Made by a program: the position numbers and the translations under genes | The notes under the pieces: model-generated | Told to the model about the DNA's origin: nothing | Database searches by the model: none | The model's input: the letters and a program-made list of their open reading frames with translations, nothing else | Assembly (NCBI GenBank): GCA_041666865.1 | Contig: JBAYGD010000005.1 | Location: 50,208-114,207, forward strand | DNA length: 64,000 nucleotides | Reading direction: 5' to 3' | Source of the DNA: Candidatus Omnitrophota bacterium | Lineage (GTDB): Bacteria; Omnitrophota; Omnitrophia; Omnitrophales; Aquincolibacteriaceae | Part shown: positions 7,665-51,514 of the stretch, one piece after another | Layout of the letters: each line of letters begins with the position of its first letter | Position numbering within the stretch: position 1 is the stretch's first letter

Positions 7665-7830
7665 GAATCAAATTCACATGCTAGTGTTTAAGTAAGGGCA
7701 AATCCCCCTTCTTGTATCCAAGAGGGCATCCTCCGATGGGGATGGAGAAATCGGGAGACGCAAAGCCACAGTCCCTACCACCCGGGCGTTCCGGGTGCGG
7801 GAGGCTGGGTTGCCGGAAAGGAAGCTTTTC

Positions 7831-10432: not shown

Positions 10433-11864
10433 GGGAGTCGAGGGCCAGGCGCCGGATCACATCGTCGGGAGTCCTGGCCATTTCCGCTTCGACGGCATGA
10501 ACGATCTGGGCCTTGAGAATGAGGGGGGCCTCGCAGACGATTTGTCCAAACTCCGGACGCCCCAGGACCCTCTGTAAAACATCCCGGTAGGCGGTGCCGT
10601 GGGCGGACATCACGGCACGCGCCGCCTCCGGCGGCACATTGAACTCCCGGGCAGAGTCTTCGGCGGTCTGCAAAAGGTTTCCGCCGCCGTGAAGGCGGAA
10701 ATGCTTCAGGCCGTAAGTCCCCCGTCTGATTTTATCGAGACAATCCACGGCCACCCTCCGGTAAGTCGTGTATTTTCCGCCAGCCACAAACCAGATGCCC
10801 GAATGCGACCGGTGGATCATATGCTTGCGCGACACTTTCGAGGGAGAACCTCCCCGGCGGATGAGCGGACGTATCCCCGCAAAAGTCGAGAGGACGGAGG
10901 ACTTTTCGAAACGGACTCCGGGGAAAACCCGGTCCGCCTCGGAAAGCAGATAATCGACGTCCTCACTTTCGGTCCTCACGTCGTCGGGGGAGCCGCTGTA
11001 GACCGTATCCGTGGTCCCGATCAGGGAATTCCCTCTCCAGGGCAGGATGAAAAACACGCGGTCGTCCTTTTTCGCGGGAATCAAAAAGCCGTGCGCCGAG
11101 ACTTTCCCGGGATACACAAGATGAATTCCCTTGGTCATCCGGATCCGCTTGGGGGCGCTGGGATTGTCCATCCTCAGCAGCTGGTTGGTCCAGGGCCCCA
11201 GGGCGCACACAACGTTCTTCGCATAAACTTCGAGGGTGTGATCGGCCAAAAGATCGACAGCCCGCACACCCACAGCACGATCATTATCCTTGATGAAGGA
11301 AATGACCTCGACATAATTGACCGCCTGGGCGCCGGCCTGAACCGCCGAGACGACATTGGCCAGGCACAGCCTGAAATCGTCCATCTGAGCGTCCCAGTAA
11401 AGCACTCCCCCGCGCAGGCCCTCGCGCCGAGCAGCCGGTGCGAGTTCCAAAACCTCGGCGGCCGTCAAATTCCGGTGTTTTTGGATGACGGCCTTACCGG
11501 CCAAACCGTCGTAACAGGACACGCCCAACTTCATCATCCACAAGGGCCGCTTGTCGCCGTGATAAACCGGAATGACGATACTCAGGGGCTTGACCAGGTG
11601 AGGCGCCGCTTCGAGCTGGAGGCGGCGCTCGTGAAGGGACTCGTAGACGAGATCCAGTTCGAGGTTCTCGAGATACCGAATGCCGCCGTGGATCAGTTTG
11701 GTAGATTTACTGGAGGTGCCGCTTGCAAAATCGCCCTTTTCCAGAAGCGCAACTTTCAGACCCCGGCGTGCGCCGATATGGGCGATCGCCGCGCCGTTGA
11801 TTCCTCCTCCGACGACGAGAAGATCGAACGGAGTCTTCGCAAGATGATCCGGATTGCGTTCCAT
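10362..11864 (-). CDS. glpD: FAD-dependent glycerol-3-phosphate dehydrogenase
   Basis: 500 aa. N-terminal FAD site FDLLVVGGGINGAAIAHIGARRGLKVALLEKGDFASGTSSKSTKLIHGGIRYLE. The 511-aa plus-strand ORF 10599..12134 is its antisense shadow. Confidence 0.85.
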   Translation of the reverse strand: MERNPDHLAKTPFDLLVVGGGINGAAIAHIGARRGLKVALLEKGDFASGTSSKSTKLIHGGIRYLENLELDLVYESLHERRLQLEAAPHLVKPLSIVIPVYHGDKRPLWMMKLGVSCYDGLAGKAVIQKHRNLTAAEVLELAPAARREGLRGGVLYWDAQMDDFRLCLANVVSAVQAGAQAVNYVEVISFIKDNDRAVGVRAVDLLADHTLEVYAKNVVCALGPWTNQLLRMDNPSAPKRIRMTKGIHLVYPGKVSAHGFLIPAKKDDRVFFILPWRGNSLIGTTDTVYSGSPDDVRTESEDVDYLLSEADRVFPGVRFEKSSVLSTFAGIRPLIRRGGSPSKVSRKHMIHRSHSGIWFVAGGKYTTYRRVAVDCLDKIRRGTYGLKHFRLHGGGNLLQTAEDSAREFNVPPEAARAVMSAHGTAYRDVLQRVLGRPEFGQIVCEAPLILKAQIVHAVEAEMARTPDDVIRRLALDSLVNVPAECLGAIEEVLKARGYFS

Positions 11865-19871: not shown

Positions 19872-20447
19872 TTACTTCTTCGCCTCGGCAACCTGCGCTT
19901 GGACCGCCGCAACCTTGGCCCCGCCGGTCTTCGCGGTTTGAGCAACGGTCTTCGCAGCAGCTTGACCGGAAGCGGGGATTTTCGGAGTCACGACGGTAGG
20001 CGACTTTGCCACCGAAGGCATAAGATCCCGAACCACCGGTTTCGCCGAAACTGCCGGCGTGGCCGGAACCGCCGACCTCATCCCGGGGACAGCGGGCAAA
20101 GCGGGCTTGGCGGGAACCGCGGGCCCCGTCGGCTTCACAGCCATAGCGGAGACCGTCTTGGACACATTCCCCGCCGGAACGTTGACAGCTGCCTTTTTCT
20201 GGACCACCGCCGGAACAGCCGGAACCACAGACCGCGCCGGAGTTGCGGGAATAGCCGGCTTCACCTCGGCCGGAACCGCGGGAACCGCAGGGACGGCCTT
20301 GGCAACTTCTTTCTTTGCCTGCCCTTGATTGACTTGGGCAGCCGCAGCAGATTTCTTATTGATGTCCTGTGCAGCAGCAAAAGCCGCCGTCTGAAACGCA
20401 AAACATACCGCAACCAAAATGACGATGATGCAGGTCAACTTCTTCAT
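19872..20447 (-). CDS. secreted Ala/Pro/Val-rich low-complexity protein (AVPAVPA-type repeats)
   Basis: 191 aa with a signal peptide and iterated PAVPA / KPA motifs. The plus-strand ORF 19611..20480 is its antisense shadow. Confidence 0.55.
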   Translation of the reverse strand: MKKLTCIIVILVAVCFAFQTAAFAAAQDINKKSAAAAQVNQGQAKKEVAKAVPAVPAVPAEVKPAIPATPARSVVPAVPAVVQKKAAVNVPAGNVSKTVSAMAVKPTGPAVPAKPALPAVPGMRSAVPATPAVSAKPVVRDLMPSVAKSPTVVTPKIPASGQAAAKTVAQTAKTGGAKVAAVQAQVAEAKK

Positions 20448-20639
20448 CGATTCATTCTCCTTTCAATTCGATACCGTTGATGCTCGTGATGAAACTGAAA
20501 TGGCTAAAAAAAACCACCGCTACTTTATGCCAAAACCAACGGGCTGTCAATAGGACGTCCGGAAGGAAAGATTCATTCAACCACCAACCCGGCGTGAACA
20601 TACATCCTTCGAGCCGAAGGATGATGTGAACGCACCTAA

Positions 20640-20830
20640 ACCGACCGTTTAGGTGTTGGGGTTGGTGCGTAACCACCACCATTCCACACGAGACCGTCAA
20701 GGTCTCGGTGGATGGCACTCAACCAACAAGGTTGAGTGCTCGCCTGCGGACTCGTGCGCTTTGCGCAGCACCAACCCGGTTGGGGTTGGTGCGTAACCAC
20801 CACTCGCCTGCGGACTCGTGCGTGGTTACG
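20640..20830. repeat. tRNA-trailer repeat block: two direct copies of GGTTGGGGTTGGTGCGTAACCACCAC ... (C)TCGCCTGCGGACTCGTGCG, plus 9-bp-stem hairpins
   Basis: Unit A is at 20653-20678 and 20778-20803. Unit B is at 20739-20758 and 20804-20822. Hairpins: cacctaaac/gtttaggtg, cactcaacc/ggttgagtg, gcaccaacc/ggttggtgc. Similar pieces occur next to tRNA-Phe (23461-23530, inverted) and tRNA-Met (39080-39140). Confidence 0.7.
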
Positions 20831-20912
20831 TGCGGCGAGAGGGAATTGAACCCCCACCCCTTTCGGGACAGGATCCTAAGTCCTGCGCGTCTGCCAGTTT
20901 CGCCATCGCCGC
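20831..20912 (-). tRNA. tRNA-Leu (anticodon TAG), long variable arm
   Basis: The minus-strand sequence GCGGCGATGGCGAAACTGGCAGACGCGCAGGACTTAGGATCCTGTCCCGAAAGGGGTGGGGGTTCAATTCCCTCTCGCCGCA folds as a cloverleaf with anticodon loop CTTAGGA. CCA is not encoded. Confidence 0.85.
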
Positions 20913-20931
20913 AAGAAGAGGGAGAGAAGAG

Positions 20932-21005
20932 TGCGCCCTGAAGGACTTGAACCTTCGACCCACTGATTAAGAGTCAGTTGCTCTACCAAACTGAGCTAAG
21001 GGCGC
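20932..21005 (-). tRNA. tRNA-Lys (anticodon CTT)
   Basis: GCGCCCTTAGCTCAGTTTGGTAGAGCAACTGACTCTTAATCAGTGGGTCGAAGGTTCAAGTCCTTCAGGGCGCA is 74 nt with a 7-bp acceptor stem and T-loop TTCAAGT. Confidence 0.9.
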
Positions 21006-21099
21006 ATGTCTTGAAACAGTACGCGATTTGATGACCGGCAAGGAATGCGTATTCTAAAGACAGTCGGGCAATTAGTAAAGGGCCTAAATCGCCGTTTTT

Positions 21100-21948
21100 T
21101 CACTGCGGGGCCATCTGCCGGATCCCCTTCGTGGCCTCCTGATAGGCCTCCCGGTTGGTCGTAAAACTTTTTCCTTCGAGCGGAAGATTGGCAAATTCTT
21201 TCTGTAGATTTTTAAAACGCTTCTGGGTAATCGGATGGGATTGGTAATAGTCGAGAAAATAAGGGCGAAGCGCCTTGTCGGCCTCGAGAAAACGGTACTG
21301 AACGTCGATGAGCCCCTGGGGATCATAACCTGCCGCGACCATGTAGCCGAGGGCCTTTGCATCGGCCCGCTGCCCTCTTTTCTCCGACCGCGGGCGGACG
21401 GCTTCGAACAGGATTTGCATTACCAGGAGCCCGGCCATCGCCGCCGCCCCAATTTGCCCCACCAAAGGAGCCGCCATGGCCGCCCCTTGAGTCATCTGAT
21501 CCATCACCTTCTTGAGTCTCGAAAGACGGGGGTCCCGCGACTGCAACTGGGCGATTTCATGGGCAAGGACGCCGGCCAGTTCCGATTCGTTATCCAGGAA
21601 CCGAAGCATGCCGGTCGTCAGGTAAACGTATCCGCCCGGCGCAGAAGTCGCGTGAATTTTCTCGTCGTACAAAATCGTGAAACTGTACGGCAGTTCCTGG
21701 CGCTGGGCGTGGTCCGCCAGCGAGTGCCCGATCTGGTTGACGTAGGACACGACTTCCGGCTCCGTATAGGGATAAAAAGCGGCCAGGATCGATTCATTGA
21801 TCTCGCGGCCGGCCGCGATTTCCCGGCCAAGCTCGCCAGTCATTGCCTGGGAGTCGTTGACGCCCTCCCCCCGGGCCTTGGCCCCCTGGGACGCACATCC
21901 TGGAAAACCGAGCACAAGGACCAGCAGGAAAGCCGTTACCGCACGCAC
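21100..21948 (-). CDS. M48-family zinc metalloprotease lipoprotein (BepA/YfgC-like)
   Basis: 282 aa. Lipobox LVLGFPGCAS and HExxH motif (LAHEIAQLQ). Confidence 0.7.
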   Translation of the reverse strand: MRAVTAFLLVLVLGFPGCASQGAKARGEGVNDSQAMTGELGREIAAGREINESILAAFYPYTEPEVVSYVNQIGHSLADHAQRQELPYSFTILYDEKIHATSAPGGYVYLTTGMLRFLDNESELAGVLAHEIAQLQSRDPRLSRLKKVMDQMTQGAAMAAPLVGQIGAAAMAGLLVMQILFEAVRPRSEKRGQRADAKALGYMVAAGYDPQGLIDVQYRFLEADKALRPYFLDYYQSHPITQKRFKNLQKEFANLPLEGKSFTTNREAYQEATKGIRQMAPQ

Positions 21949-22051: not shown

Positions 22052-22125
22052 GCGCCCGTAGCTCAATTGGATAGAGCATTTGCCTTCGGAGCAAAGGGTT
22101 GCGTGTTCAAGTCACGCCGGGCGCA
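22052..22125 (+). tRNA. tRNA-Arg (anticodon TCG)
   Basis: GCGCCCGTAGCTCAATTGGATAGAGCATTTGCCTTCGGAGCAAAGGGTTGCGTGTTCAAGTCACGCCGGGCGCA is 74 nt with anticodon loop CTTCGGA. Confidence 0.85.
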
Positions 22126-22140
22126 CTCCTTCTCGCATCA

Positions 22141-23169: not shown

Positions 23170-23316
23170 ACGAAAATTAATATATCAGAAAGTAAAAGGG
23201 GTCACACCTATTTAAATGCGGACGGGTTCGTGGGATGCCGATGCCGTTCGCATCGGCAAGGTTTGATCGGAGGTGCACTCATAATTGGTTGCGGAATAAT
23301 AGATGGGCGTTACTAT

Positions 23317-23343
23317 GGCCCTTTTGCTAGCGGCAAAAGGGCC
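23317..23343. other. perfect 11-bp stem-loop GGCCCTTTTGC-tagcg-GCAAAAGGGCC just downstream of tRNA-Phe
   Basis: Palindrome at 23317-23343. There is no U-tract on either strand, so it could be a processing or structural element rather than an intrinsic terminator. Confidence 0.5.
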
Positions 23344-23378
23344 ATTCCACCACTCACCCTGCTGGGTTCGTGTGTGGA

Positions 23379-23451
23379 ATGGGCAGGGAGGGAATTGAAC
23401 CCCCGACACAGGGATTTTCAGTCCCTTGCTCTACCGACTGAGCTACCTGCC
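23379..23451 (-). tRNA. tRNA-Phe (anticodon GAA)
   Basis: GGGCAGGTAGCTCAGTCGGTAGAGCAAGGGACTGAAAATCCCTGTGTCGGGGGTTCAATTCCCTCCCTGCCCA is 73 nt. Confidence 0.9.
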
Positions 23452-23582
23452 CGTAAACATACATGAGCCCGCAGGCGAATGATGATCACGCACCAACCCC
23501 CACCGGGTTGGTGCCAGCATCCTCATCCTGCAAGCGTGCGATGGGACGCCAATCATACTGGACATGCAAAAATGTGTCAAGC

Positions 23583-38054: not shown

Positions 38055-39053
38055 TTATGGCAATTTTCTTTCCGCCAAAGTGACATCCCGGGGGGAAACG
38101 ATAAGATCAATGCTTTTGGGGAGGGAGTGGCGATCACGGGGCCGTAAGAGACGGGGGCGCAAAGTCATCCAAGCCGCGAAACTCAGGCCGCTGGCGGGGT
38201 TGATCCTCTTAAGTGCACGATCGATGACCCGGAACTGAAGCGGCGGCGAAAGTTCCGAAAAAATCTTTCGGCGAAGAGTGAGGCGCCCGCTGCGGAGCCC
38301 CCCGAAGGCGGCCTTCCAGGCTTCCTTCTCGAGCTGAATCATCATCCGGTTTTCATCCTCCAGGATGGCGGGGATGCGGGCCAGCGCGTGTGCGGCACGG
38401 GGATTGATTTCTTTTTCGATCCAGGGGAGGAGCTTTCGTCGGATCCGATTGCGCACCATGGCAAGCGAACGATTGCTTGAGTCCGTACGGAAACGAAGCC
38501 GGTTCCGGCGAAGCCAATCAAGGATCTCGGCTTTGCCGAAATCCAGAAGCGGCCTGACGAACGACCGGCCGCCCGCAGAAAGTGAACGCCGGATGCCGGC
38601 CAGCCCGCGCAAGCCCGTCCCCTGCAAAATGCGCATGAGGACGGTTTCTGCTTGATCGTCCCGGGTATGGGCCAGCGCGATTTTTCGAACGCGGTGTTTT
38701 CGGGCCGCCCGAATAAAAAAATCATACCGCATCTTGCGTGCGGCTTCTTCGAGCGACAGGTTTTGGCTGCGGCGCAGCCGCGCGACCTTCCCCCGCCCGC
38801 AATAGCACGGAATGCCGGAGCGCTTCGCAAGATCGCGGACAAAGCATTCGTCCCGGTCCGCAGCCGGTCCCCTCAATCCATGATTGAAATGGAGGAGCCC
38901 CAGTTTAAGGCGCCAGGAGACGGCAATTCGGCAGAAAAGAGACAAAAGAGCGACGGAATCCGGGCCTCCGGAACAAGCAACCCAAATCTGCTCGCCGGGG
39001 GACACAAGCTTGCCGCTCTTCAGGTTTTCTTCGAATGCTTTGAGGAGGTCCAT
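38055..39053 (-). CDS. tilS: tRNA(Ile)-lysidine synthetase
   Basis: 332 aa. PP-loop ...VACSGGPDSVALL... Confidence 0.85.
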   Translation of the reverse strand: MDLLKAFEENLKSGKLVSPGEQIWVACSGGPDSVALLSLFCRIAVSWRLKLGLLHFNHGLRGPAADRDECFVRDLAKRSGIPCYCGRGKVARLRRSQNLSLEEAARKMRYDFFIRAARKHRVRKIALAHTRDDQAETVLMRILQGTGLRGLAGIRRSLSAGGRSFVRPLLDFGKAEILDWLRRNRLRFRTDSSNRSLAMVRNRIRRKLLPWIEKEINPRAAHALARIPAILEDENRMMIQLEKEAWKAAFGGLRSGRLTLRRKIFSELSPPLQFRVIDRALKRINPASGLSFAAWMTLRPRLLRPRDRHSLPKSIDLIVSPRDVTLAERKLP

Positions 39054-39144
39054 AAGGTTGAGGGCTCGTGTCTCTTGCGCTGCACCTATCCGGTTGGGAT
39101 AGGTGCGTATCCATCACTCGCCTGCGGGCTCGTGTATGGAGACG

Positions 39145-39217
39145 TGGCGGGGAGGAGAATCGAACTCCTGACACGAGGCTTATGAGTCCTCTGCTCTACC
39201 AACTGAGCTACCCCGCC
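39145..39217 (-). tRNA. tRNA-Met (anticodon CAT), elongator-like (G1:C72). A tRNA-Ile2(LAU) identity cannot be excluded from sequence alone.
   Basis: GGCGGGGTAGCTCAGTTGGTAGAGCAGAGGACTCATAAGCCTCGTGTCAGGAGTTCGATTCTCCTCCCCGCCA is 73 nt. Lies 92 nt upstream of tilS on the same strand. Confidence 0.8.
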
Positions 39218-39269: not shown

Positions 39270-42200
39270 CTAAGCAAAGGTTCGCGTTCCGTCCTTCTGG
39301 TGCCGGTAACGAAAATTCGTGGTTTCCCCGAGAGCTCCCGCCCATGAAGTCGACTGGACCAGTGCGTAAGTGCCGTCCGCAAGTTTGATCGCATAAGTAT
39401 TGCCTTCGAGGGCCCCCACGGACGTCGTGTAACCGCTAAGAGGGACTTCCGTCACGGTGTCGATGCCCACTCCCCCCATATCCACGATACCGTTCGAGGC
39501 ATTGACCTGCAGCTCATTCCCATTAAAATTTCGTCTGAAATCATACACGGGGCCGAGAACGCCTGCCCCCAAGGGATTAACCCGTTTTGCCGTGAAATCG
39601 TATTCCTGAATCCATCCGTCGGCAGCGGCCATCATATCGGTCTGAACCAAGCTGAAAGTCCCGGTTTCGATCTGGGATGACGAAGCACCCCCGGAATCTT
39701 GCGTCTCGCCCGCTCCGGGCTGCACGGGAATGCGCTCCACCTCCGCCACGCGAATCTCCTCAACGACCGTTTGACTCAAACCGCTGGATTCAGCGATTTG
39801 CGGCGAGAGGGTGGCGTAAATCAGGTTGCCGCGCAGGTTCTGGATCTTCATCTCGCCGTCCTCGAGCACGAAGATCATCGTGGTCCGGCCGGTCGTTTTC
39901 TGGTCCTGGCCGGTCTGGCGCGGAGTTTGGGTCTTGTCCCACTTCGTGTCCGCGATGTAGGTATTTCCGCGGACCTCGATCCGGTTGACGAAGATCATGA
40001 GCCGGATGTTCATAAACATGTCGAAATCGTAGCGTACCCCTTCCGCTAGAAAAACCCGGTCTCCGATAAAATCCCGGGCAATCAAGCGCTCGAATTTCCC
40101 AAGGTCCTGGGTCTCGTAGGCTTCTGCAAGCTTTTTCGTCGTCGCCACGACAAGATCTTCATATTTGATCGGTTGATGAATGATTCCGAAGAGATTGGGA
40201 AAGAACGGAAGCATCGCTTCCTGGCCGTCGTTCGTCCTGATCCTGAGGACCAGTTGGTAGAGCTTGTCAGGGACCGGATAGAACCGGTAAGAGATGTTCG
40301 CATTGAGCGGGATCTCGTTCCAGGTACGCCCGTCGTCCTCGGAAACCAGCAGCTTCTCGATCCTGTCCGTGCTCGACAGCCTGGCCGTAATCTCGACCGC
40401 CCCAGCGACAAGATCAGAGTTGGTGATCACCACTTCTCCGGAAGCACTGTCAAGGCGGCGCGTATTCAGCCGCACATCCGTCAGCTGGTAAAATCCCGAC
40501 ATGACAGGATCCATGTCCACCGCGCCCACACCGCCGCCTGTCGCCCCTCCCTGGCCGGATCCGGACAAGCCGCCCGTGACTCCCCCTCCGCCTCCGGCGC
40601 CTCCGAGCGAACTTCCGCCGGGGGGACCGGCCTGCATGATTTTTTTGCAGTTCTCGATCATGCCGTCCACTTCGGTCTCGATCATTTTCATGCCCTCGAT
40701 GTCTTGGAGGGCATCGGGGACCAGAATTTCGGTGTTCTTTCGCATGGACACCGTTTCCCTTTGATAGGCTTCGAGTTTTTGCAAAAGCGGCGTGGAGGGA
40801 AGGGCATATTGAACTTCACGTTTGAAATTTTCAAACCTTTCCTGCATCACCTTGAGATTGTTCTTGGTCGCCACACGGGACGTTTTGAATTTGGCGATTT
40901 CCGTTGCAAGCTGCTTTTCGAATTCGGCAAGGCGCACCGGGATCTTCACGTACTCGTCGAAAAGTCTGCTCGTCGTGGGATCTGCGGTGCCAAAAAACGA
41001 TTTTCCCAGGGCCGCGTAGGTCCCATGGATCTTTTGGGCCGCCTCGATCTGATCCTTTCGGGCCTCCCAAGCTTTTTTCATTTCGGCAATATACGCGGCG
41101 GCGTCAGATTCCTCGGGTTTGACCGAAGCGCTCCATTTGCCGTCCTTCATGTGGGCAGTGCGTTCGATATCCACTCTGCGCAGGTCCTCCGCCTCGTATT
41201 TCCTGAGCTCCGGAGCGTCGAGCAGCCGCCAAAACCGGGCCGCCAAAGCCGCCGGCCCTTCCAACTCCTCGAGTTTTGTGATCTCCTCGGAAATCCACCG
41301 GAGCCCCGCCTGGTAGCCGGTCGCCACATCCACTTCATCTTTCAATCGCTCCCATGGCCGGTCGCCGATATAAACCGTGACGACAGGCGCACCCTCGTCG
41401 CGAAGGGCCTGAAGCGGCTCCAGAGGTCCCGCCACCATCCACGTCACATGCATCATCGCCGTCCACGACTCCGGATCCCCATAACCGCCTCCGTAGTATT
41501 CACGGTAATCTTTTTGAACGATGCTTTCGAATTCGTTTTTGAGAGCGTCGTAAGCATCTCTGAGTTTTTTGGCGTTCGCGCGGTGCTCGGACTGAATGCC
41601 AGCGGCCACGGGGGCATCCTTTTCGATGTCCCGTTTGTACATCCGAAGAGGTTCGCCGACCTTGAGCACCTCCTCGGGAATCCTCCGGTCTCCCATGTAA
41701 GGCGCCTCATATTTAACCTGGGATTCCGGCCCGCTGTAGACCGCCGGATATTTGAGAAGGGTCTGAACCTTGTCGCCCAGAGCCTCTTCGCCGTCGGTGT
41801 AAGCTTTGTAGGCCTTCTCCCACGTTTCCCTCATTTTTTCACAATCGGCCTTGAGGTCGTCGACCATTTTCTTGTTCCGCTGAAAAGCCTCGAGCGTGAC
41901 CAAGGCTTCCCTGGCCGCAAGGGCCTCCAGATCCTTCCCCCTTTTTGCAGGCCATTCCATGTAAAGAGCGCTCGTGATACGGTTCTGCGCGCCGGGATCC
42001 ATATCGGGCTTCAGCTGGGCCGCCAGATCCGAAAACTGCTTGTCGTTTTCCGCGATGACCTTTTTCCTGCTCTCGACATAATAATTCCACAACTCCTGCG
42101 CCTTCTTGTAATCGTAACCGGAACTGTAATTATCCGTGATTTCCGAATACGCCGCCTCGAGATCGCTGAGAATCGTTCCGGCGGCAATCGGCGTATACGC

Positions 42201-43361
42201 AATCGACGTCTTGACGGCATTCATTTCCGACTCAACCTCGGAAATGCCGGATTCGAGGTCCTTCTTTTGGTTCCCGTAGAGGTTGGTCTTGTAGTCCTCG
42301 ATCATCTTGAGGTAGGGATCGGCCTGCGCAAAAACACTTTCCAAGGCCGAGCGGGCCTCCTTGTTGGCGGCATCGCTTTTTTGCTCCAGCTCGCGAATTT
42401 TTTCCGCAAACTCTCGTTCGATCGCCTCCATTTTTCTCTTCTCTTCCAGAACATTCGCTTTCATTTTTTCGAGAGTGGCAAGGATGGCCGCTTTCATTTC
42501 GTCCCCCGCCTCCTCGTGGGTCTCGGAGTTCCCGTCATATCGGGCATACAAGCGGGTATTCGAGCCGATATAATCATTCCATTCATTCTCGACATGAGCC
42601 TTGAGGTCGGTCGTTTGGATCCACTCGGCAAAGGCCTTGGGATTCGATTCCGGCGGAAAAGGAAGGACATCCCGGACATTGCCCTCGAGCGCCGAGGTAA
42701 AAGCTTCGCTCATGATGTAAGCGCCAAGGGCCTCCACAATGCCCTGCGCGACACGGTAAAGCTTCCAGCCCGGAACGAGATATTCGAGAACCTCATCCGC
42801 CGCGGCCTTGCCGAAAGCCTCAAACCCCTTTCTCAGGTCGCCCGTTTTGCGCCATTCCGTCAGTCCTTTGACGGCCACCTTCGCCGACGTAATTCCCGTC
42901 TTCAGGGCATTGAGGCGCGTGTCGATCTTGCTCACGAGCTCCGCGTTTGCGGCACTCCAGGCGGCGCTTGTGGTCATCTTCTCGACCAAAACCTGGTGCA
43001 TCATCGCAGGGACCTTCTCCTTGAACATCGCTTCGCGCATCTTGGCGGCGGCGACGTTCGCCATCTCTTTTTTCAGGCGGTCCCAGGCCAACTCCCCGCT
43101 CTTGGCCACAATCCGCTCGGTCCCCTTCGTGAGAAGATACTGGACCTTCTCCTCGTCTGTTTTGAGCGATTGGTATTCCGTCACGTCCTTGAGAAAATCC
43201 CGAACCCCTTCAAGCAAGGCTTTGGAGGCGCGTTTCGACGCCCCGCTGTCGGCAGATGCTTTGGCGGCAAAAAGCGCCGGATTCGAGCCGGAAGTCATGA
43301 CCAACGAAACAGCAAGTCCTGCACAAAACAACGCCTTCAGTGCTTTGGGTATCATAAACAT
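39270..43361 (-). CDS. giant secreted helical/coiled-coil protein, paralog A (1363 aa), unknown family
   Basis: Signal peptide (MFMIPKALKALFCAGLAVSLVMTSGSNPALFA). About 900 aa rich in A/E/K with a predicted helical body. Gly-rich linker (GGSSLGGAGGGGGVTGGLSGSGQGGATGGGVG). C-terminal conserved module shared with B and C. The second ATG (43355) has better SD spacing. Confidence 0.8.
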   Translation of the reverse strand: MFMIPKALKALFCAGLAVSLVMTSGSNPALFAAKASADSGASKRASKALLEGVRDFLKDVTEYQSLKTDEEKVQYLLTKGTERIVAKSGELAWDRLKKEMANVAAAKMREAMFKEKVPAMMHQVLVEKMTTSAAWSAANAELVSKIDTRLNALKTGITSAKVAVKGLTEWRKTGDLRKGFEAFGKAAADEVLEYLVPGWKLYRVAQGIVEALGAYIMSEAFTSALEGNVRDVLPFPPESNPKAFAEWIQTTDLKAHVENEWNDYIGSNTRLYARYDGNSETHEEAGDEMKAAILATLEKMKANVLEEKRKMEAIEREFAEKIRELEQKSDAANKEARSALESVFAQADPYLKMIEDYKTNLYGNQKKDLESGISEVESEMNAVKTSIAYTPIAAGTILSDLEAAYSEITDNYSSGYDYKKAQELWNYYVESRKKVIAENDKQFSDLAAQLKPDMDPGAQNRITSALYMEWPAKRGKDLEALAAREALVTLEAFQRNKKMVDDLKADCEKMRETWEKAYKAYTDGEEALGDKVQTLLKYPAVYSGPESQVKYEAPYMGDRRIPEEVLKVGEPLRMYKRDIEKDAPVAAGIQSEHRANAKKLRDAYDALKNEFESIVQKDYREYYGGGYGDPESWTAMMHVTWMVAGPLEPLQALRDEGAPVVTVYIGDRPWERLKDEVDVATGYQAGLRWISEEITKLEELEGPAALAARFWRLLDAPELRKYEAEDLRRVDIERTAHMKDGKWSASVKPEESDAAAYIAEMKKAWEARKDQIEAAQKIHGTYAALGKSFFGTADPTTSRLFDEYVKIPVRLAEFEKQLATEIAKFKTSRVATKNNLKVMQERFENFKREVQYALPSTPLLQKLEAYQRETVSMRKNTEILVPDALQDIEGMKMIETEVDGMIENCKKIMQAGPPGGSSLGGAGGGGGVTGGLSGSGQGGATGGGVGAVDMDPVMSGFYQLTDVRLNTRRLDSASGEVVITNSDLVAGAVEITARLSSTDRIEKLLVSEDDGRTWNEIPLNANISYRFYPVPDKLYQLVLRIRTNDGQEAMLPFFPNLFGIIHQPIKYEDLVVATTKKLAEAYETQDLGKFERLIARDFIGDRVFLAEGVRYDFDMFMNIRLMIFVNRIEVRGNTYIADTKWDKTQTPRQTGQDQKTTGRTTMIFVLEDGEMKIQNLRGNLIYATLSPQIAESSGLSQTVVEEIRVAEVERIPVQPGAGETQDSGGASSSQIETGTFSLVQTDMMAAADGWIQEYDFTAKRVNPLGAGVLGPVYDFRRNFNGNELQVNASNGIVDMGGVGIDTVTEVPLSGYTTSVGALEGNTYAIKLADGTYALVQSTSWAGALGETTNFRYRHQKDGTRTFA

Positions 43362-43468
43362 TCTCTCCGTATTTTCTTACGTCCACCGCTGTCGCAACAG
43401 GATGATTCGATTACGAGGACTAAAAAACCATGTAATATAGCATAACGAACCTCGTCTGCGCGAGGGGG

Positions 43469-46400
43469 TTACGTAAAACTCCGTGTTCCGTTCTTCTGGT
43501 GCCGGTAATGGAACGTCGTCGTATACGGCATCGGGACATCCCCCCAGGCCGTCGACTGAACGAGCGCGAACGTCCCATCCGCAAGCCTGATCGCGTAGGT
43601 ATTCCCCGCCGTCGCGCTGATCGAGGTGGCGTATCCGGACTCAGGAACCTCTTTCACGCCGTTGATATCGACCGCTCCCATATCGAGGACTCCGTTGCTC
43701 GCGTTGACCTCCATCCATCCTTCCCGCCGCCGGAAATCATAGACCGGACCAAAATTGTCGATCGCGGCCACCTGTTTCGAGCTAAAACGATATTCCTGGA
43801 TCCAACCCGCCGCCGGATGGCCCGTGGTTTGGACGAGACTGAACGTGCCCGTCTCGATGTTCGTGGCGCCGCTTGCGAGCCCGCCGGAATCTTCCGTCGT
43901 GCCGGCTCCGGGTTGTACCGGCTCTCTTTGCTCTTGGGCGATGCGGATCTCATCGACCGCCGTCTGGCTCAGACCGCTGGATTCCGCAATCTGCGGCGAG
44001 AGAGTGGCGTAAATTAGGTTGCCGCGAAGATTCTGGATCTTCATCTCGCCGTCCTCGAAGACAAAGATCATGGCCGTTCTTCCGCTCGTTTTCTGCTCTT
44101 GCCCGGTTTTCCGCGGCGTCTGGGTCTTATCCCACTTCGTCTCTGCGACAAAAGTATTTCCGCGCATCTCGATCCGGTTGATGTAGAGCGCCAGACGGAT
44201 AGACATGAACATATCGAAATCAAAACGCACGCCTTCGGACAAGAAGACCCGGTTTCCGAGAAAATCGCGCGAAACGAGACGTTCAAAACGCGCAAGATCC
44301 TGCGTCTCGTACGCCTCGGCGATTTTGGTGACGGTCTCCATCAAAAGCTTTTCGTAATTGATCGAGCGGTAGAGGATCCCGTTGATATTCGGAAAAAAGG
44401 GAATGCTCGCCTCCCCGCCGGCCGCATTCTTGATCTTCAAAACCGGCTGATAGAGCCGTTCCGGTGCCGGTACAAAACGGTAAAGGATATCGGAATTCAC
44501 CGGAATTTCATTCCACGATCCGCCGTTGCCCTCGGAAACAAGGAGGGTCCGCACTCCGTCGATCGTGTCGAGGCGTGCGGTCACCTCGAAGGCACCGCTT
44601 CGAAGGTCGGCAGGGGTCGCGATCACGTCCCCGGAGGCGTTCTGGAGGCTTCGAGTATTGAGCCGCGTGTCGAGGAGGCGGTAGTCTTTCATCTCGGCTT
44701 TACGGGTTTCTTCTTCTTTCTTCTTTCTCTCCGCTTCATCCTCTTCGCGTCGCCGGCGCTCCTCTTCGTCCCTTCGCATCTGGTCGTCGAATTTTTTCTT
44801 GTCCTCTTCGGACTGCTTGACAGCCTCGTTAATCGCCTTTTCGACATCCTCTTTCAGTTTGCCCCACCCCGCATTCACCGCCTTGAGGTGATCCGTACCG
44901 CCGTGCGTCAGCCAAACCCCGGTCAACTGGGCGCCGTTCTTGGCATTGGCCAAAACAGGCTTCAGCCGGTCGGGCCTGTAAGCGGCAATCGTCTCCTTGA
45001 CGATCCTGTCGAATTCCTGACGGGCCTCCGTCAGATATTTTTCCGAAAGGGCCGTCCGGTCCTCATAACTCTTTTTCCCGCGCTCCAGGGCCGCTTCATA
45101 AATGCGGATTCTTTCGGGCACCGAATCCCACGCATCCAAAAGGCGGTACGTGTGGTCGTAGAAATCAAACTTGTATTTGACGGCTCTTCCGATCTTTTTT
45201 CTGAGCTTGTCGAGCCGGTCCACCAGCTCCTTGTTGGCCTCCCAGGCCGCTTTGAGCTCGGCAAGATACTTGGCCCCCTCGGAGTTTTCCGGCACGACGA
45301 ACATATGCGCGCTGTCGTTGTATTGATAAGGAGTCGCTTCGTCAGCCTTCCTTTTTTCATCGTCCACCGTCCGGTCTGGGAGCATCATCATGATGCGTGT
45401 CTCCGTGACACGAGTCATGACCGAAAGAAATATTTTGGCCAGTTCGTCCGGATAGGACAGGTTCTCCGCCTCCGTAATCTTCGGCTGCAGAGCCCTCAAG
45501 GCCTTGTCGGCCTCATAGGGATTTTTCGCGAGGAAGGTCCGGTAATCGGCCGCCGGCATATAGCCCCACACGCGGTAGATCACGACCCCGCCGGACTCAT
45601 ACCAGACCTCCGAAAGAAGCTCGGACCCCCAAGGCGCGTAAAAACGGTTCATGAAGCAAAAAGCCTCCACCGCATCATTGGTGGGACCTTCCTGGAGGAT
45701 GAGGGCCTTGGGGATCACCGACCGGTAGACCTTGAGGACCTCCATGGCAGTCGCATAAAATTTCTCGAAGTTCTCTTTCTCTTTGGCGTGAAGCGGCCCC
45801 GCCGCCGCAACGTCCGCCGTGATCGCATCCTTTTGCCGGAGCAGTCCTTCCCTCGCCTTGACCACATCGCCGACCCACTCGTATTCGCCGCTCAAAGCAT
45901 TCACCATACTCTCCAAGAAATCCGGGCTACGCCACGCCCCCGCATAATTCAGGGCCCCCACGGCCGCTTCCAATTCATTGCGCGACTGGGCATACCCTTC
46001 TACAGCGCTGTTCAGTTTCTCGGCCGCTTCGCCGAGCTTCGTCACAATTTCCTGCCGTTTTTTTGCGGCCCGTTCCGCGGCCCCGGCGTATGCCACCTGC
46101 TCCTTGGCCGCAAGGACTTCGATGTCCTTGGCCTGCTCCGAGTGGAGAATCCAAGCATTCACGACATTAAAGTGCGGCGTAGCGGCATTGCTCCAAGCAT
46201 TCGAAATCGCATTGTATTGCGCCGCAAGCGCGTTGCGATGGGCTTCGTCTCTTGCAGCGTTCATCTGATCGCCGATCGAACGCAGCTGGGGCAAATACTG
46301 GGCCGACAGCTGTTCCAGGACCTTGGAAGACGCCTCAATTTTATTTGCGATATCCTCGCTCGACTTCTGAATCGCTTTGGTTCGGACTTCCTGATAATGT

Positions 46401-47656
46401 TTGTACAAATCGGAAATCTTTTCGGCGTCGTAGCCGTCCGTACCGCTCTCCTTGATCCCGTCGAGCGCCGCCTCCAGGGCACTCAACACCGACCCCTGAT
46501 CCATCGGAGTATACTGCGCGGCCATGCGAACTTTTGTGTACCAGGCCTTCTGCTGCGCCTGCTCCTGCTCTTCCTCGGTCACATTTTCTTGGGCGTCCTG
46601 TTTCGCGAACCCGCCGATTGCATTTTCGTAATTTTGGATAACTTTGAAGGCAGGCTCAAATTGGCTCATCGCCTTGTCCGCGGTATCCTTGACGGCATCC
46701 GAGGCCTTGGCCGCCTGGTCGTCGAGCTCGCTGAGCTTCTGGCGCAGTTCGGACTCGACCTGCTTTTTCTGCTGGACCTCGCCCTTGAGCTTGTTGAGTT
46801 CGGCAATAATCGCCATCTTCATATTCTCGCCCTCATTGCCCGCGCCCTTCAGATACCACCCCCCATAGGCTAGCTGCTCGTCCCACTCCCGTTGGACATA
46901 CGAGGCAATATCGACCTTCTGGATCCAGTCGACAAATCCGGCCGGATTGGTCTGGGGATCGTTCGCACCTAGAACCACCTTCATCTTGGCCTCAAGGGCC
47001 GTATCGAAGGCATAGTTCACCACGTACTCCCCGATGGCTTTCACGAGATCCTGAGCCAGCTTATACCAGCCCCAGCCCGGGACCAAATAAGCGACGATTT
47101 TGTCGCCGATCTTTTCCCCGAGCTTCCGGAGCCCGGCCTCTGTCCCTTTTTTGCTCCAGGCATCCAGGACATCCCACCCGATCTCGACCGCATCCAGGGC
47201 GCCCTTGACAGCGTTCATCTGGGTGTCAAGTTTGCTTTTCATGGTCGCGTCGACCTGCGACCAAATCCCACTCACCGTCTTTCCTTCCACGACCACCTGG
47301 TGAAGCATCGAGGGAATTTCCGCTTTGAAGAGGTCCGACTTGAGACGTGCTTTCGCGTACTCGAGGAGCTTCGCCTTGATCGTATCTTTCACGAGCTTGA
47401 CGGACTGCTTCTGGATGCGCTCCCTGCCCTTGGTCAAAATGTACTGGACCTTCTGCTGATCCGACATGCCGCTCATCTCGTCGAGGTCTTTGACGAGGTT
47501 CGTAAACTGCTTGATCAGTTCCTGGGCCGCTTTGCCCGCCGCAGTTTTTTCGAACGGTTTTTCTTCGGCAAAAGCGCAGGGGTTCAGAGACAGGAAAGCA
47601 ACAAGCAAGAAGCTGGCGGCTCCCTTCAAGGCTTCGCGCAAAATATTCCTTTCCAT
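43469..47656 (-). CDS. giant secreted helical/coiled-coil protein, paralog B (1395 aa), unknown family
   Basis: Signal peptide (…AASFLLVAFLSLNPCAFA-EEKP). N-terminal block collinear with A and C (YLVPGWGWYKLAQDLVKAIGEYVVNYAFDTALEA). E/R/K-rich linker (DEEERRRREEDEAERKKKEEETRKAE). C-terminal module is 70-80% identical to A by eye. Confidence 0.8.
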   Translation of the reverse strand: MERNILREALKGAASFLLVAFLSLNPCAFAEEKPFEKTAAGKAAQELIKQFTNLVKDLDEMSGMSDQQKVQYILTKGRERIQKQSVKLVKDTIKAKLLEYAKARLKSDLFKAEIPSMLHQVVVEGKTVSGIWSQVDATMKSKLDTQMNAVKGALDAVEIGWDVLDAWSKKGTEAGLRKLGEKIGDKIVAYLVPGWGWYKLAQDLVKAIGEYVVNYAFDTALEAKMKVVLGANDPQTNPAGFVDWIQKVDIASYVQREWDEQLAYGGWYLKGAGNEGENMKMAIIAELNKLKGEVQQKKQVESELRQKLSELDDQAAKASDAVKDTADKAMSQFEPAFKVIQNYENAIGGFAKQDAQENVTEEEQEQAQQKAWYTKVRMAAQYTPMDQGSVLSALEAALDGIKESGTDGYDAEKISDLYKHYQEVRTKAIQKSSEDIANKIEASSKVLEQLSAQYLPQLRSIGDQMNAARDEAHRNALAAQYNAISNAWSNAATPHFNVVNAWILHSEQAKDIEVLAAKEQVAYAGAAERAAKKRQEIVTKLGEAAEKLNSAVEGYAQSRNELEAAVGALNYAGAWRSPDFLESMVNALSGEYEWVGDVVKAREGLLRQKDAITADVAAAGPLHAKEKENFEKFYATAMEVLKVYRSVIPKALILQEGPTNDAVEAFCFMNRFYAPWGSELLSEVWYESGGVVIYRVWGYMPAADYRTFLAKNPYEADKALRALQPKITEAENLSYPDELAKIFLSVMTRVTETRIMMMLPDRTVDDEKRKADEATPYQYNDSAHMFVVPENSEGAKYLAELKAAWEANKELVDRLDKLRKKIGRAVKYKFDFYDHTYRLLDAWDSVPERIRIYEAALERGKKSYEDRTALSEKYLTEARQEFDRIVKETIAAYRPDRLKPVLANAKNGAQLTGVWLTHGGTDHLKAVNAGWGKLKEDVEKAINEAVKQSEEDKKKFDDQMRRDEEERRRREEDEAERKKKEEETRKAEMKDYRLLDTRLNTRSLQNASGDVIATPADLRSGAFEVTARLDTIDGVRTLLVSEGNGGSWNEIPVNSDILYRFVPAPERLYQPVLKIKNAAGGEASIPFFPNINGILYRSINYEKLLMETVTKIAEAYETQDLARFERLVSRDFLGNRVFLSEGVRFDFDMFMSIRLALYINRIEMRGNTFVAETKWDKTQTPRKTGQEQKTSGRTAMIFVFEDGEMKIQNLRGNLIYATLSPQIAESSGLSQTAVDEIRIAQEQREPVQPGAGTTEDSGGLASGATNIETGTFSLVQTTGHPAAGWIQEYRFSSKQVAAIDNFGPVYDFRRREGWMEVNASNGVLDMGAVDINGVKEVPESGYATSISATAGNTYAIRLADGTFALVQSTAWGDVPMPYTTTFHYRHQKNGTRSFT

Positions 47657-47759
47657 ACCGACACCCTTTCGACACCTTGTTTTTTCTCAGCCCTCTTTAC
47701 AAAAGAACCGGACAAAATAAGGATGAAATTGTAACACGAGAAATCCGCCGGGCGAATGG

Positions 47760-47816
47760 CAATTTGTGGAAGCCCGCGGGGCGGGAATGCTATAATACTC
47801 CCCTTCAAAAAGGAGC
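47760..47816 (+). promoter_or_regulatory. candidate promoter and RBS of giant gene C inside the B/C divergent intergenic region
   Basis: TATAAT at 47791-47796. AAAGGAG at 47809-47815, 6 nt before ATG 47822. A back-to-back TACAAT-like -10 for gene B lies on the minus strand at 47738-47743. Confidence 0.4.
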
Positions 47817-47821
47817 CCCAT

Positions 47822-50800: not shown

Positions 50801-51514
50801 CGGCTCGCCCTTTACATCAACCGGATCCAAAAAAACGGCGGCCAATATGCGGCCGACGTCCGCTGGGACAAAAACCAAATCGCCAAAAAAAACGGGCAGG
50901 GGCAGAAAATCAGCGGGAATACGACGTTTCTCTTCGTCCTGGAGGACGGCGCCATGAAGGTCAAAAGCCTCAAGGGCAGCCTGCTCTACGCGTCCTTGTC
51001 CGTGGAAATTGCCGAATCGAGCGGCCTGAGCTCGAAAGCGGTCGAGGAGGTCCGAAAGGCCCGAGAGGAGGATGGGACCGTTCCCCCCACCGCAGAAACG
51101 AACCAGCCTTCTTCCTCAGCTTCCGCCCAGAATCAGCAGCCGATGCTCGAAGTCCGCCGCGGCACGGTTCGCTCGTCCCAAAACTTAGGCTCTTTCAGTT
51201 TCGACTTTTCAGGAGGCTCCGAGGGGCCTACCCGCTCAGGCGATGTCGATTTTGAGGAAAATATCTTTCTGCCGGTTGGCTCCGTCAGCCTTCAGAAAGT
51301 GAACGGGTCCTTTGACCAGCTCAACATGGCCCCCGACTCGGGCTATTCGCAGGACACCTTCATCCTCGAAAGCGGGGATGTCATCGCTTTTATCACGCAG
51401 GAAGGCTACTACGGAAAACTCAGGATCACCTCCGTGAATACCGGATCGGACTCTCAGTGCAGTTTCGAATACGCCCTGCAGACCGACCGCTCCTACGACC
51501 TTCGGACCCGTTAG
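47822..51514 (+). CDS. giant secreted helical/coiled-coil protein, paralog C (about 1230 aa from ATG 47822), unknown family
   Basis: Signal peptide MKMIRTLALLTFATLLCGGTPPPLFA-EEE. N-terminal block homologous to A and B (SYIPGWAYTKIGVEMVKFLGNFILDYATDTAIEG). The C-terminal NTF2-like block (ADAYEAQDLNRFGDSISRDFLG...IRLALYINRIQ...WDKNQ...GQGQKISGNTTFLFVLEDGAMKVKSLKGSLLYASLS) and the final beta domain are more divergent. The listed ORF starts at 47756, upstream of the promoter. Confidence 0.8.
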   Translation: MKMIRTLALLTFATLLCGGTPPPLFAEEEESLTSKAASGLLDSLPDYFSDVEAMRNMTASQRVDYVLTKAEDRIKEKIAAKFQDDMKKGAVEYAKAAWRAKAFMEIAMPKIRSAILMDPKAPKFDWSTIDAELNHEVEVKANLAVKAIDTAMFTYEIYQKASQDGAFEAFKAASSKVYDSLAGSYIPGWAYTKIGVEMVKFLGNFILDYATDTAIEGMMEAMYDIKSNPGGLAKWLVDKSPAEIAKDVDSKWEFVQSGYLYKGQGTDKADDAMRQRITDTLVSMRGEILVKMKEAEQKEAEARSRAEGYLRDAKNAEDRIRETGKKAETAAAPALSAIRDFKSKVLGIKKQEAEVRVAEAEKIFQASSSGTKSAKSVYVPLPRAAIVGALEKALAEIQESGTSGYDAQKMNDAYTAYQKYREIALADANTAASRDFNQASLMDPDLKLLAAEEAAAWAAAEERAGKMGAKIEEGIRALNAKMLAALKELEQGLQTITRDMPGELNFPEALTDHRYVEKILEATYRPSRRPGDYQTTLGVCEEVLEKVKRDKAVMVRFAGVKKQLYAKYKNTIREIRDEFTRLVPAKIARITVTEASGAETYQLALEPFQSIVKLPRGPDFIATMVQAPDSWGLIDLEADMKEPDKLAADYAPVFEALERRLEEARTLAGKDKLAVEFTKTFTAVAADPALREALERDAARDIARAEEIFPLESNGTVMTVLPKKSEGARYLEGLKDGFQKHSGAIKRLTELRERIQNDVLYAMNFQGSFYAPLDRLNSIPERIRAYEAGLEQAEKDYRAAVSKAALESKNAREALELLRKDSAMKTPDKIERLKGLKQSASLAAERQKAWDASPELAAVVQGWPVLVAQINGEISALEKQAAADEEEKKRVLEESARKSREAEQARKREEQMKFLEQSRREEERRRQESSQQAAEAAPANAEQLVAEAMKKIADAYEAQDLNRFGDSISRDFLGSKATLLDGVRQDFDCFSGVRLALYINRIQKNGGQYAADVRWDKNQIAKKNGQGQKISGNTTFLFVLEDGAMKVKSLKGSLLYASLSVEIAESSGLSSKAVEEVRKAREEDGTVPPTAETNQPSSSASAQNQQPMLEVRRGTVRSSQNLGSFSFDFSGGSEGPTRSGDVDFEENIFLPVGSVSLQKVNGSFDQLNMAPDSGYSQDTFILESGDVIAFITQEGYYGKLRITSVNTGSDSQCSFEYALQTDRSYDLRTR

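Follow-up and report, generated by a model that had tools for sequence, protein, structure and literature searches.

The question raised by this locus is what the short repeats and hairpins lying immediately downstream of a tRNA-Leu gene are, and how they came to be there. The locus is contained in a 64,000-nt stretch of DNA (the window), part of a 204-kb metagenomic contig (ENA ERZ27249449, k141_1568265) whose proteins carry the NCBI name Candidatus Omnitrophota bacterium. An initial annotation had described two pairs of direct repeats 3' of tRNA-Leu and related units at tRNA-Phe and at a tRNA with the anticodon CAT. They had been tentatively ascribed to decayed attachment (att) sites left by integrative elements or, alternatively, to a species-specific family of repetitive extragenic palindromes (REP) targeting tRNA trailers. 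All of these features are copies, or parts of copies, of a single non-coding module of ~63 nt which, read on the tRNA strand, consists of one hairpin, H1, followed by a second, H2. The modules nest within each other, occur in both orientations and differ between relatives through gain and loss. Precise insertions of single modules, with no duplication of the target, are seen in another module's loop and between tRNA-Phe and a promoter. With moderate confidence, we regard them as a small, non-coding, mobile or dispersed repeat of one Candidatus Omnitrophota clade, behaving like REP sequences, bacterial interspersed mosaic elements (BIME) and REPIN, or like palindromic MITEs (miniature inverted-repeat transposable elements).

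The module and its nesting behind tRNA-Leu

The tRNA-Leu gene is on the minus strand, so positions 20640-20830, where the repeats were first noted, are its 3' (downstream) side. The array reaches further left than that, from 20582 to 20830. Both direct repeats are present and exact: GTTGGGGTTGGTGCGTAACCACCAC (D1, 25 nt) occurs at 20655-20679 and 20779-20803, and CTCGCCTGCGGACTCGTGCG (D2, 20 nt) at 20739-20758 and 20803-20822; a leading extra G that had been noted for the 25-mer is not shared. Hairpins with a 10-bp stem and a 5-nt loop are found at 20768-20792, 20715-20739 and 20633-20655, and again at 23490-23514 and 39082-39106. A search of the window for CTCGCCTGCGGRCTCGTG with up to three mismatches gave four matches (20739, 20803, 23462 on the minus strand, and 39117) where 0.26 were expected, and none of 100 shuffled sequences reached four. 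All of the matches are beside tRNA genes. The motif first listed as CTCGCCTGCGG is the complement of the H1 core.

H1 has an outer stem of 7-9 bp and a 1-nt bulge, after which comes CAY-GA-(3-4 bp)-loop-(3-4 bp)-GA-RTG. At tRNA-Leu the outer stem is CGTAACCAC...GTGGTTACG and begins at the first base past the discriminator. What had been taken for an echo of the tRNA-Leu trailer (CGTAACCAC) is therefore not repeated tRNA sequence; CGTAACCAC and GTGGTTACG are the two strands of one stem. H2 follows directly and has the form CAC-N6-loop-N6-GTG, 23 nt in every copy. The architecture is fixed, as are the ends of the module (CGT... to ...GTG). The stem sequences are hypervariable yet compensated, and what is conserved are the CGT...ACG feet of H1, the CAC...GTG closures of the H1 core and of H2, and the GA/GA internal loop, which is kept in most copies and replaced by ordinary pairs in some. 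The GA/GA loop (TC/TC on the opposite strand) and a G-poor 5' arm of H2 give the module its polarity.

Single modules fold with z-scores between -4.6 and -7.8. In a MAFFT alignment of seven copies (A3), 89% of the cells are paired, compared with 73% for shuffled sequences and 32-43% when the partners are slid, and both sides have changed in 14 of 24 pairs. When 19 copies are aligned to the covariance model, an alignment which leans towards that model, the paired fraction is 94.9% and both sides have changed in 18 of the 24 pairs. Wobble cells are balanced (7 G.U versus 5 A.C), so neither strand is favoured, and the folding energies of the two strands of the array are -137.5 and -137.7 kcal/mol. 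The modules could have been part of a longer, annotated non-coding RNA, but no Rfam family matched, either at the gathering threshold or at E up to 10, weak miRNA and HIV-SD matches being noise. Known motifs resembling H1 were rejected on inspection of its sequence: a hammerhead (GA-stem-GA), as the CUGANGA...GAAA core is absent; a K-turn or C/D box (GUGAUGA), as the bulge is 3 bp from the G.A pairs; domain V of group II introns, as there is no AGC triad; and a tRNA-like minihelix, as no ACCA follows a stem.

The array is a nest of four modules, A to D (Table 1). Module A (20769-20830) starts right after the tRNA-Leu discriminator A at 20831, and its H1 holds the second copy of CTCGCCTGCGGACTCGTGCG. 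Module B is an exact copy of module A minus the first nine bases and lies in three pieces, split by the inserts C and D. Module C, with the H1 CCATTCCAC-A-CGAGACC-GTCAA-GGTCTCG-GTGGATGG and the H2 CACTCAACC-AACAA-GGTTGAGTG, was inserted with at most one ambiguous nucleotide of duplication. Module D sits in the loop of module B's H2 (GG^TTG) and has no target duplication. A paralogous array on another contig (L145), 91% identical over 176 nt to window positions 20655-20830, contains insert C and lacks insert D, so that module D can be read as a precise 63-nt insertion running from CGT to GTG. The nesting of the four modules accounts for the direct repeats that had been noted and for all of the hairpins.

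Table 1. Modules and tRNA genes of the window. R1 is a covariance model; A5 is an alignment.
Feature	Positions	Strand	Evidence
Module A, H1: CGTAACCAC-G-CAC-GA-GTC-CGCA-GGC-GA-GTG-GTGGTTACG	20792-20830	-	fold -39.2 kcal/mol, z -6.2; R1 20765-20830, 80.5 bits; covariation
Module A, H2: CACCAACCC-CAACC-GGGTTGGTG, 23 nt	20769-20791	-	sequence, fold
Linker CTGCGCAAAG between modules A and B; also after the tRNA(CAT) and L143 copies	20759-20768	-	alignment A5
Module B, core of H1, CGCACGAGTCCGCAGGCGAG, matching that of module A exactly; outer-stem 5' strand absent	20739-20758	-	sequence, alignment A5
Module C, complete H1-H2, inverted, nested in H1 of module B	20679-20738	+	R1 20679-20742 (+), 27.8 bits
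Module B, outer-stem 3' strand GTGGTTACG, H2 5' arm and part of loop; first 25-mer copy of the initial annotation	20656-20679	-	sequence, alignment A5
Module D, exactly one H1-H2 unit, 63 nt, CGTGAACAT...GTTTAGGTG, inverted	20593-20655	+	R1 20593-20659 (+), 41 bits
Module B, 3' arm of split H2 (CCGGGTTGGTG on minus strand), end of array	20582-20592	-	sequence, fold, alignment A5
Module PheU, inverted, abuts tRNA-Phe 5' end; H1 23452-23490, H2 23491-23513	23452-23513	+	R1 79.1 bits; fold
Module PheD, diverged, abuts tRNA-Phe 3' end	23315-23380	-	z -7.8; R1 72.6 bits
tRNA(CAT) module, abuts tRNA 3' end	39083-39144	-	R1 83.7 bits; fold
Linker and decayed second-module remnant (CAGCGCAAGAGACACGAGCCC..TCAACCTT), reaching tilS start codon at 39053	39054-39082	-	alignment A5
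tRNA-Leu(TAG)	20831-20912	-	ARAGORN; Rfam tRNA 56.2 bits; sequence
tRNA-Lys	20932-21005	-	ARAGORN, Rfam
tRNA-Arg(TCG)	22052-22126	+	ARAGORN, Rfam
tRNA-Phe(GAA), modules on both flanks	23380-23452	-	ARAGORN, Rfam
tRNA with anticodon CAT, directly 5' of tilS, possibly tRNA-Ile2	39145-39217	-	ARAGORN, Rfam

The related units reported at tRNA-Phe (upstream and inverted) and at tRNA(CAT) proved to be copies of the same module. PheU, a 64-nt copy, lies between a promoter-like site (23580-23552) and position +1 of tRNA-Phe. On the other flank, PheD has the H1 (A)TTCCAC-A-CAC-GA-ACCC-AGCA-GGGT-GA-GTG-GTGGAA(T), followed by a 13-bp hairpin, ATGGCCCTTTTGC-CGCTA-GCAAAAGGGCCAT. The tRNA(CAT) module is made of the H1 CGTCTCCAT-A-CAC-GA-GCC-CGCA-GGC-GA-GTG-ATGGATACG (39106-39144) and the H2 CACCTATCC-CAACC-GGATAGGTG (39083-39105). 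An independent assembly, JGI sample 3300037810 (L134, L135), is 100% identical over both the tRNA-Leu array and the tRNA(CAT) unit, and the repeats are therefore not an assembly artefact.

The tRNA(CAT) gene is directly 5' of tilS-ftsH-folP-yebC-ruvC (tilS at 38055-39053, minus strand). A promoter-like site precedes the tRNA and no terminator is seen as far as tilS, so tRNA, module and tilS probably form a single transcript. The linkage of tRNA and tilS is found in a relative (L139) as well, and tRNA(CAT) may be a tRNA-Ile2 co-transcribed with its modifying enzyme.

Association with tRNA genes and spread in the clade

Other contigs were numbered L123-L145 and are either relatives or further contigs of the window species; the sequence covered amounts to ~111 kb for this species and to ~230 kb of Omnitrophota DNA for the clade. 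A JGI metagenome scan with the 23-mer of H2, a pattern blind to tRNAs, gave four further contigs, L142-L145, whose only sequence in common with the window is the element. One protein encoded on L143 has an identical counterpart in the NCBI metagenome-assembled genomes (MAGs) that also contain the window proteins, and L143 so belongs to the same species; L142, L144 and L145, which come from the same metagenome and have the same H2 23-mer, are assumed to do so. On L142 the module abuts tRNA-Leu(GAG) and is followed by a phosphoglucomutase gene. On L143 it begins directly after the stop codon of a 486-aa open reading frame (ORF) and has a terminator downstream, and on L145 the array follows a 537-aa ORF, not a tRNA; half of the copies from the tRNA-blind scan (2 of 4) thus follow protein-coding genes. 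On L144 the module follows a duplicated 3' end of tRNA-Val. At least seven unrelated loci of one species contain near-identical modules or composites. The left flanks of the insertions differ (..GCCGCA, ..CGCCA, ..TGCCC, ..GCGTAA, ..GGCAG and ..ACCCGG). The ORFs scanned around the further loci checked contained neither an integrase nor a transposase domain.

In the region of L144 concerned (10847-11045), 17 nt of the tRNA-Val 3' end are directly repeated 108 nt downstream of the gene; the T-arm recurs in inverted form in between, and the module comes immediately after. It is an att-like or duplication event separate from the module, which, being outside the duplicated segment, is the older of the two.

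Other searches were less productive. A first metagenome scan with a 33-nt H1 pattern found no match, the samples of this clade evidently being mostly outside that collection. The 17-mer TCGCCTGCGGRCTCRTG gave at least 120 matches to genome contigs, and those listed were all chance matches inside coding regions of GC-rich genomes, the query being too short. The H2 23-mer had no match among viral contigs, so there is no sign of a phage origin.

Five of the seven loci found without reference to tRNAs abut tRNA genes (P ~1e-6, based on the 3.7% of the window that is within 250 nt of a tRNA), and the other two begin at the stop codons of protein genes, with a terminator further downstream. All five of the 23-nt CAC...GTG hairpins in the 64 kb are within 175 nt of a tRNA. 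When the other tRNA genes were checked, modules were found in 5 of the 7 tRNA transcription units in the sampled part of the species; the tRNA-Arg and Cys-Leu(TAA) units have none. For most modules the first base is the one that follows the tRNA discriminator; one module, inverted, lies flush with the 5' end of a tRNA. At 10 of 11 loci the first module has the same sense as its gene. The association with tRNA genes is strong, and it is not exclusive. The proposal of a species-specific, REP-like family at tRNA trailers holds in so far as the modules are lineage-specific, dispersed, hairpin-forming and enriched at tRNA genes, but one copy is at a tRNA 5' end and some follow protein genes.

Comparison with relatives revealed both presence and absence, the PheU and tRNA(CAT) modules being missing at orthologous sites. 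PheU is absent in L126, L128 and L131, where the promoter is ~37 nt from the tRNA, and the tRNA(CAT)-tilS spacer of L139 has no module. L131 and L132 contain no copies at all. The M48 protease adjoining the array has its closest relative, among 5.8 billion proteins, at 67% identity, and this relative (L123) keeps H1 at the orthologous tRNA-Leu(TAG). In one genome (L126, L141, L127), several modules lie behind tRNA-Arg and tRNA-Phe and ahead of tilS, among them a minus-strand match to model R1 in L126 at 2716-2782; these modules have stems of quite another sequence and loops specific to the genome (GAACG versus CAACC in the window species). In total there are 19 clade copies, all intergenic, in the ~230 kb, over which model R1 gave no match outside these arrays.

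In several independent assemblies the relatives' contigs end in or near arrays of tRNAs and modules (the end of L126 and the starts of L127, L141 and L136-L138). Breaks at such places are expected of multi-copy repeats, which suggests that the modules fragment MAG assemblies.

Repeats of other sequence are also found beside tRNA genes in these relatives. In L123 (10994-11412), tRNA-Lys is followed by 2.5 tandem 144-nt units of 96% identity with four hairpins, each unit starting with the last 18 nt of the tRNA; the anatomy is like that of the 178-bp RtT repeats of E. coli tyrT/tyrV, and the sequence is unrelated. In L128 (4853-5030), the sequence directly 3' of tRNA-Arg is a two-hairpin unit of ~64 nt, repeated ~2.5 times in tandem; it is unrelated in sequence to the H1-H2 module and gives no match to the model. 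L141 has 60-nt repeats after a tRNA. About 100 nt 5' of tRNA-Arg in L123 (9696-9780), a copy of the first 12 nt of that tRNA, GCGCCCGTAGCT, and an inverted copy, GCTACGGTCGCGC, enclose two hairpins in a cloverleaf-like pseudo-structure. Fragments of GCGCCCG occur upstream of tRNA-Arg in L126 and L128 as well.

Origin of the modules

If the modules are mobile, new copies would arise as DNA, inserted where a stretch is transiently single-stranded; hairpin loops are candidate targets, as is the strand displaced when tRNA genes are heavily transcribed. The hairpins closed by CAC...GTG would be recognised by an enzyme acting in trans. A transposase of the HUH/Y1 type, similar to TnpA or to the REP-associated tyrosine transposases (RAYT), is the obvious candidate, and none was found in the ORFs scanned. 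As the first module is nearly always sense to the upstream gene, the modules are probably transcribed as tRNA trailers or 3' untranslated region (UTR) hairpins, where they may also act as exonuclease barriers or processing sites. A role at the RNA level, in trailers or 3' UTRs, is compatible with the data and may explain why the stems are perfectly compensated, why the first module is in sense orientation and why it starts exactly at +1.

Several observations weigh against a mobile repeat. None of the ORFs scanned in the ~111 kb of the species yielded a transposase of any kind. The H2 stems vary between copies yet are perfectly paired, unlike those of ordinary decaying MITEs, which points to selection on the hairpin and could also be explained by an RNA function. 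Selection on the transcript, without any specificity of insertion, could suffice to give the sense orientation at 10 of 11 loci and the exact +1 start. The 176-nt composite present at two loci could have been moved by gene conversion or recombination and not by transposition. Finally, the retention of H1 at tRNA-Leu(TAG) of a relative whose neighbouring protein is only 67% identical is long for a selfish element.

The modules might instead be primarily functional RNA, namely a structured trailer or 3' UTR element used for 3'-end processing or to block 3'-to-5' exonucleases, with the tandem G.A hairpin binding a protein and the spread incidental. The strong covariation and perfectly paired stems, together with the GA/GA loop conserved in most copies, are in keeping with this, as is an outer stem starting exactly at +1 past the discriminator in tRNA-Leu(TAG), tRNA(CAT) and tRNA-Leu(GAG) of the window species, in tRNA-Arg and tRNA-Phe of L126 and in tRNA-Leu of L123, where H1 has been kept. 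The terminator-free run of tRNA(CAT), module and tilS, probably one transcript, has a like layout at tRNA-Leu(GAG), module and phosphoglucomutase gene, and a module array is found upstream of tilS in the second genome. However, PheU is antisense within the tRNA-Phe leader, modules C and D are inverted and nested, the two strands fold alike with balanced G.U and A.C cells, and some copies have ordinary pairs in place of GA/GA. Moreover, modules are missing at orthologous sites in close relatives and at tRNA-Arg and tRNA-Leu(TAA) of the same species. Overall, a primary RNA function is possible, if doubtful. That module B is an exact copy of the adjoining module A raises the different prospect of a merely local tandem duplication of a tRNA trailer, by slippage or unequal crossing-over, as in the 178-bp RtT repeats of E. 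coli tyrT/tyrV. A check of the E. coli case bore the precedent out (178 bp x 3.1; 4 RtT matches), and true tandem arrays follow tRNAs in relatives (144 nt x 2.5 at tRNA-Lys of L123, ~64 nt x 2.5 at tRNA-Arg of L128, 60-nt repeats in L141). Such duplication would leave unexplained the unrelated loci, the copies at protein genes, the inverted nested modules and the copy 5' of tRNA-Phe, and the window repeats are without tRNA sequence and do not match RtT (RF00391). As the whole explanation tandem duplication is very unlikely; the dispersed copies contradict it as sole cause, and it survives as a secondary process within arrays.

tRNA genes are classic integration sites, which is what makes attL/attR relics of integrative elements worth considering, and the 17-nt repeat at tRNA-Val of L144 indicates that integration-like events do occur at these loci. 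That repeat, however, leaves the module outside the duplicated segment, which it predates. A second copy of the terminal 16 nt, 3' or 5', of any of the five window tRNAs (found with ARAGORN and the Rfam tRNA model) was sought with up to three mismatches, and none was found near tRNAs in the window; the repeated sequence is not tRNA-derived. The same module is found behind different tRNAs and behind protein genes. No tyrosine or serine integrase, remnant of one, or transposase domain was seen in the scanned window ORFs, nor an integrase at the other loci checked. With no duplicated tRNA end in the window and no such enzyme in its scanned ORFs, the reading as decayed att sites was rejected, and we consider it extremely improbable. 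A stronger form of the mobile-repeat reading, in which the module homes to the exact boundary of a tRNA gene, whichever side that is, and in every case has H1 facing the acceptor-stem end, by way of the folded tRNA gene in single-stranded DNA or a tRNA-processing cut site, is unlikely. If true, such homing would be guided by structure, a mode of targeting not known from bacterial repeats, and a hairpin-copying step that keeps stems paired while their sequence drifts would be a further novelty.

Comparison with known systems

REP, BIME and REPIN elements are mobilised by RAYT transposases in Enterobacteria and Pseudomonas (PMC3116915, PMC3337134, PMC5581495). Like the modules, they are short, non-coding, lineage-specific palindromic sequences, extragenic and in most cases placed between the 3' end of a gene and a terminator. 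They too stand alone or form mosaic clusters, in either orientation; they share the transcript of the upstream gene and pass down vertically, with copies gained and lost. A REPIN is two inverted copies of one REP forming one long hairpin, whereas the module is a polar pair of different hairpins. Membership of the REPIN family fails because the unit inserted (module D, PheU) is two different hairpins side by side. The stems differ as well, being hypervariable and compensated here, and the modules nest in loops and in most copies start at a tRNA boundary. REP hairpins have a GTAG/CTAC-type tetranucleotide at the foot, which RAYT recognises; in the module the conserved feet are CGT...ACG in H1 and CAC...GTG in the H1 core and in H2. 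The RAYT gene itself (Y1 transposase, PF01797) is single-copy and typically flanked by REPs, and no RAYT is present in the ORFs scanned here.

MITEs derived from IS200/IS605, also called palindrome-associated transposable elements, are moved by the Y1 HUH transposase TnpA and insert into DNA able to become single-stranded. The module resembles them in having no terminal inverted repeats, no target-site duplication (module D), a hairpin near each end and a fixed polarity. It differs in being much shorter than known examples and in having no conserved 4-5 nt target at the left flank, which reads GCA, CCA, CCC, TAA, CAG or CGG, and neither TnpA nor TnpB is found in the ORFs scanned.

RtT RNA (RF00391), from the E. 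coli tyrT 178-bp repeats, also consists of repeated hairpin-rich units directly 3' of tRNA genes, released from the tRNA precursor. The window modules differ in having no tRNA 3'-end sequence and in being dispersed, some of them inverted or after protein genes. A unit starting with the tRNA 3' end, as in RtT, is not seen in the window, but the 144-nt repeat at tRNA-Lys of L123 has this form. The RtT model gave no match at 20400-21100 with E up to 10 and, at the gathering threshold, none in L123, L126 or L128, while a control in E. coli gave four matches of 133-138 bits. The attC sites of integrons were rejected, as the outer stems CGTAACCAC/GTGGTTACG, CGTCTCCAT/ATGGATACG and similar ones have no RYYYAAC...GTTRRRY cores. 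For the retrotransposons TRE of Dictyostelium and Ty3 of yeast (PMC5006619, PMC6101501), which target tRNA genes in compact eukaryotic genomes, these genes are likewise 'safe havens' where mobile DNA can reside among densely packed genes. Those, however, are autonomous retroelements, guided by RNA polymerase III factors and inserting tens of bases away, whereas here a 63-nt non-coding module abuts the tRNA gene. In the literature we found no description of tRNA-flanking repeats in Omnitrophota or of bacterial MITEs targeting tRNAs. The best fit for the family is a lineage-specific, non-autonomous relative of REP/BIME or of palindromic MITEs, without an Rfam entry.

The Omnitrophota are an uncultivated phylum of mostly tiny cells whose non-coding DNA is hardly described. 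As this family shows, polarity, a bipartite make-up and a strong tie to tRNA gene ends are all possible for a REP-like repeat, and the tRNA loci of the clade have been shaped by it: a leader has been lengthened, tRNA(CAT) set apart from tilS, and arrays nested. If the abutment to tRNA genes reflects targeting, the module would be a bacterial counterpart of the 'safe-haven' strategy of eukaryotic retrotransposons; if it reflects selection, H1 with its tandem G.A loop would be a candidate for a new processing or stability signal of tRNA precursors. The covariance model provides a marker for the clade and flags one cause of contig breaks in MAGs.

Elsewhere in the window, positions 7687-7817 (plus strand) match the cyclic di-GMP-I riboswitch aptamer (RF01051) with 42 bits against a gathering score of 35. 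Three neighbouring ORFs of 1250-1400 aa are found at 39270-43361 (-), 43469-47656 (-) and 47756-51514 (+). The size of those in 39270-47656 had suggested rpoB/rpoC; this was rejected, the region encoding giant hypothetical, lineage-specific proteins. For the first of them (39270-43361), a set of 5.8 billion proteins contains only two homologues at E<1e-100, and no Pfam domain is recorded.

The modules coincide with assembly breaks and also with rearrangement of the tRNA genes themselves, by inversion and by replacement. tRNA-Arg(TCG) runs opposite to its neighbours here, whereas in L123, L126, L128 and L131 it points the same way as they do; it has been flipped along with ~15 nt of trailer, in a small local inversion. 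The slot 5' of a ROK-family gene is occupied by tRNA-Met(CAT) in L123 (8503-8576) and by tRNA-Phe in the window, L126, L128 and L131, so that the tRNA gene at this conserved position has been replaced.

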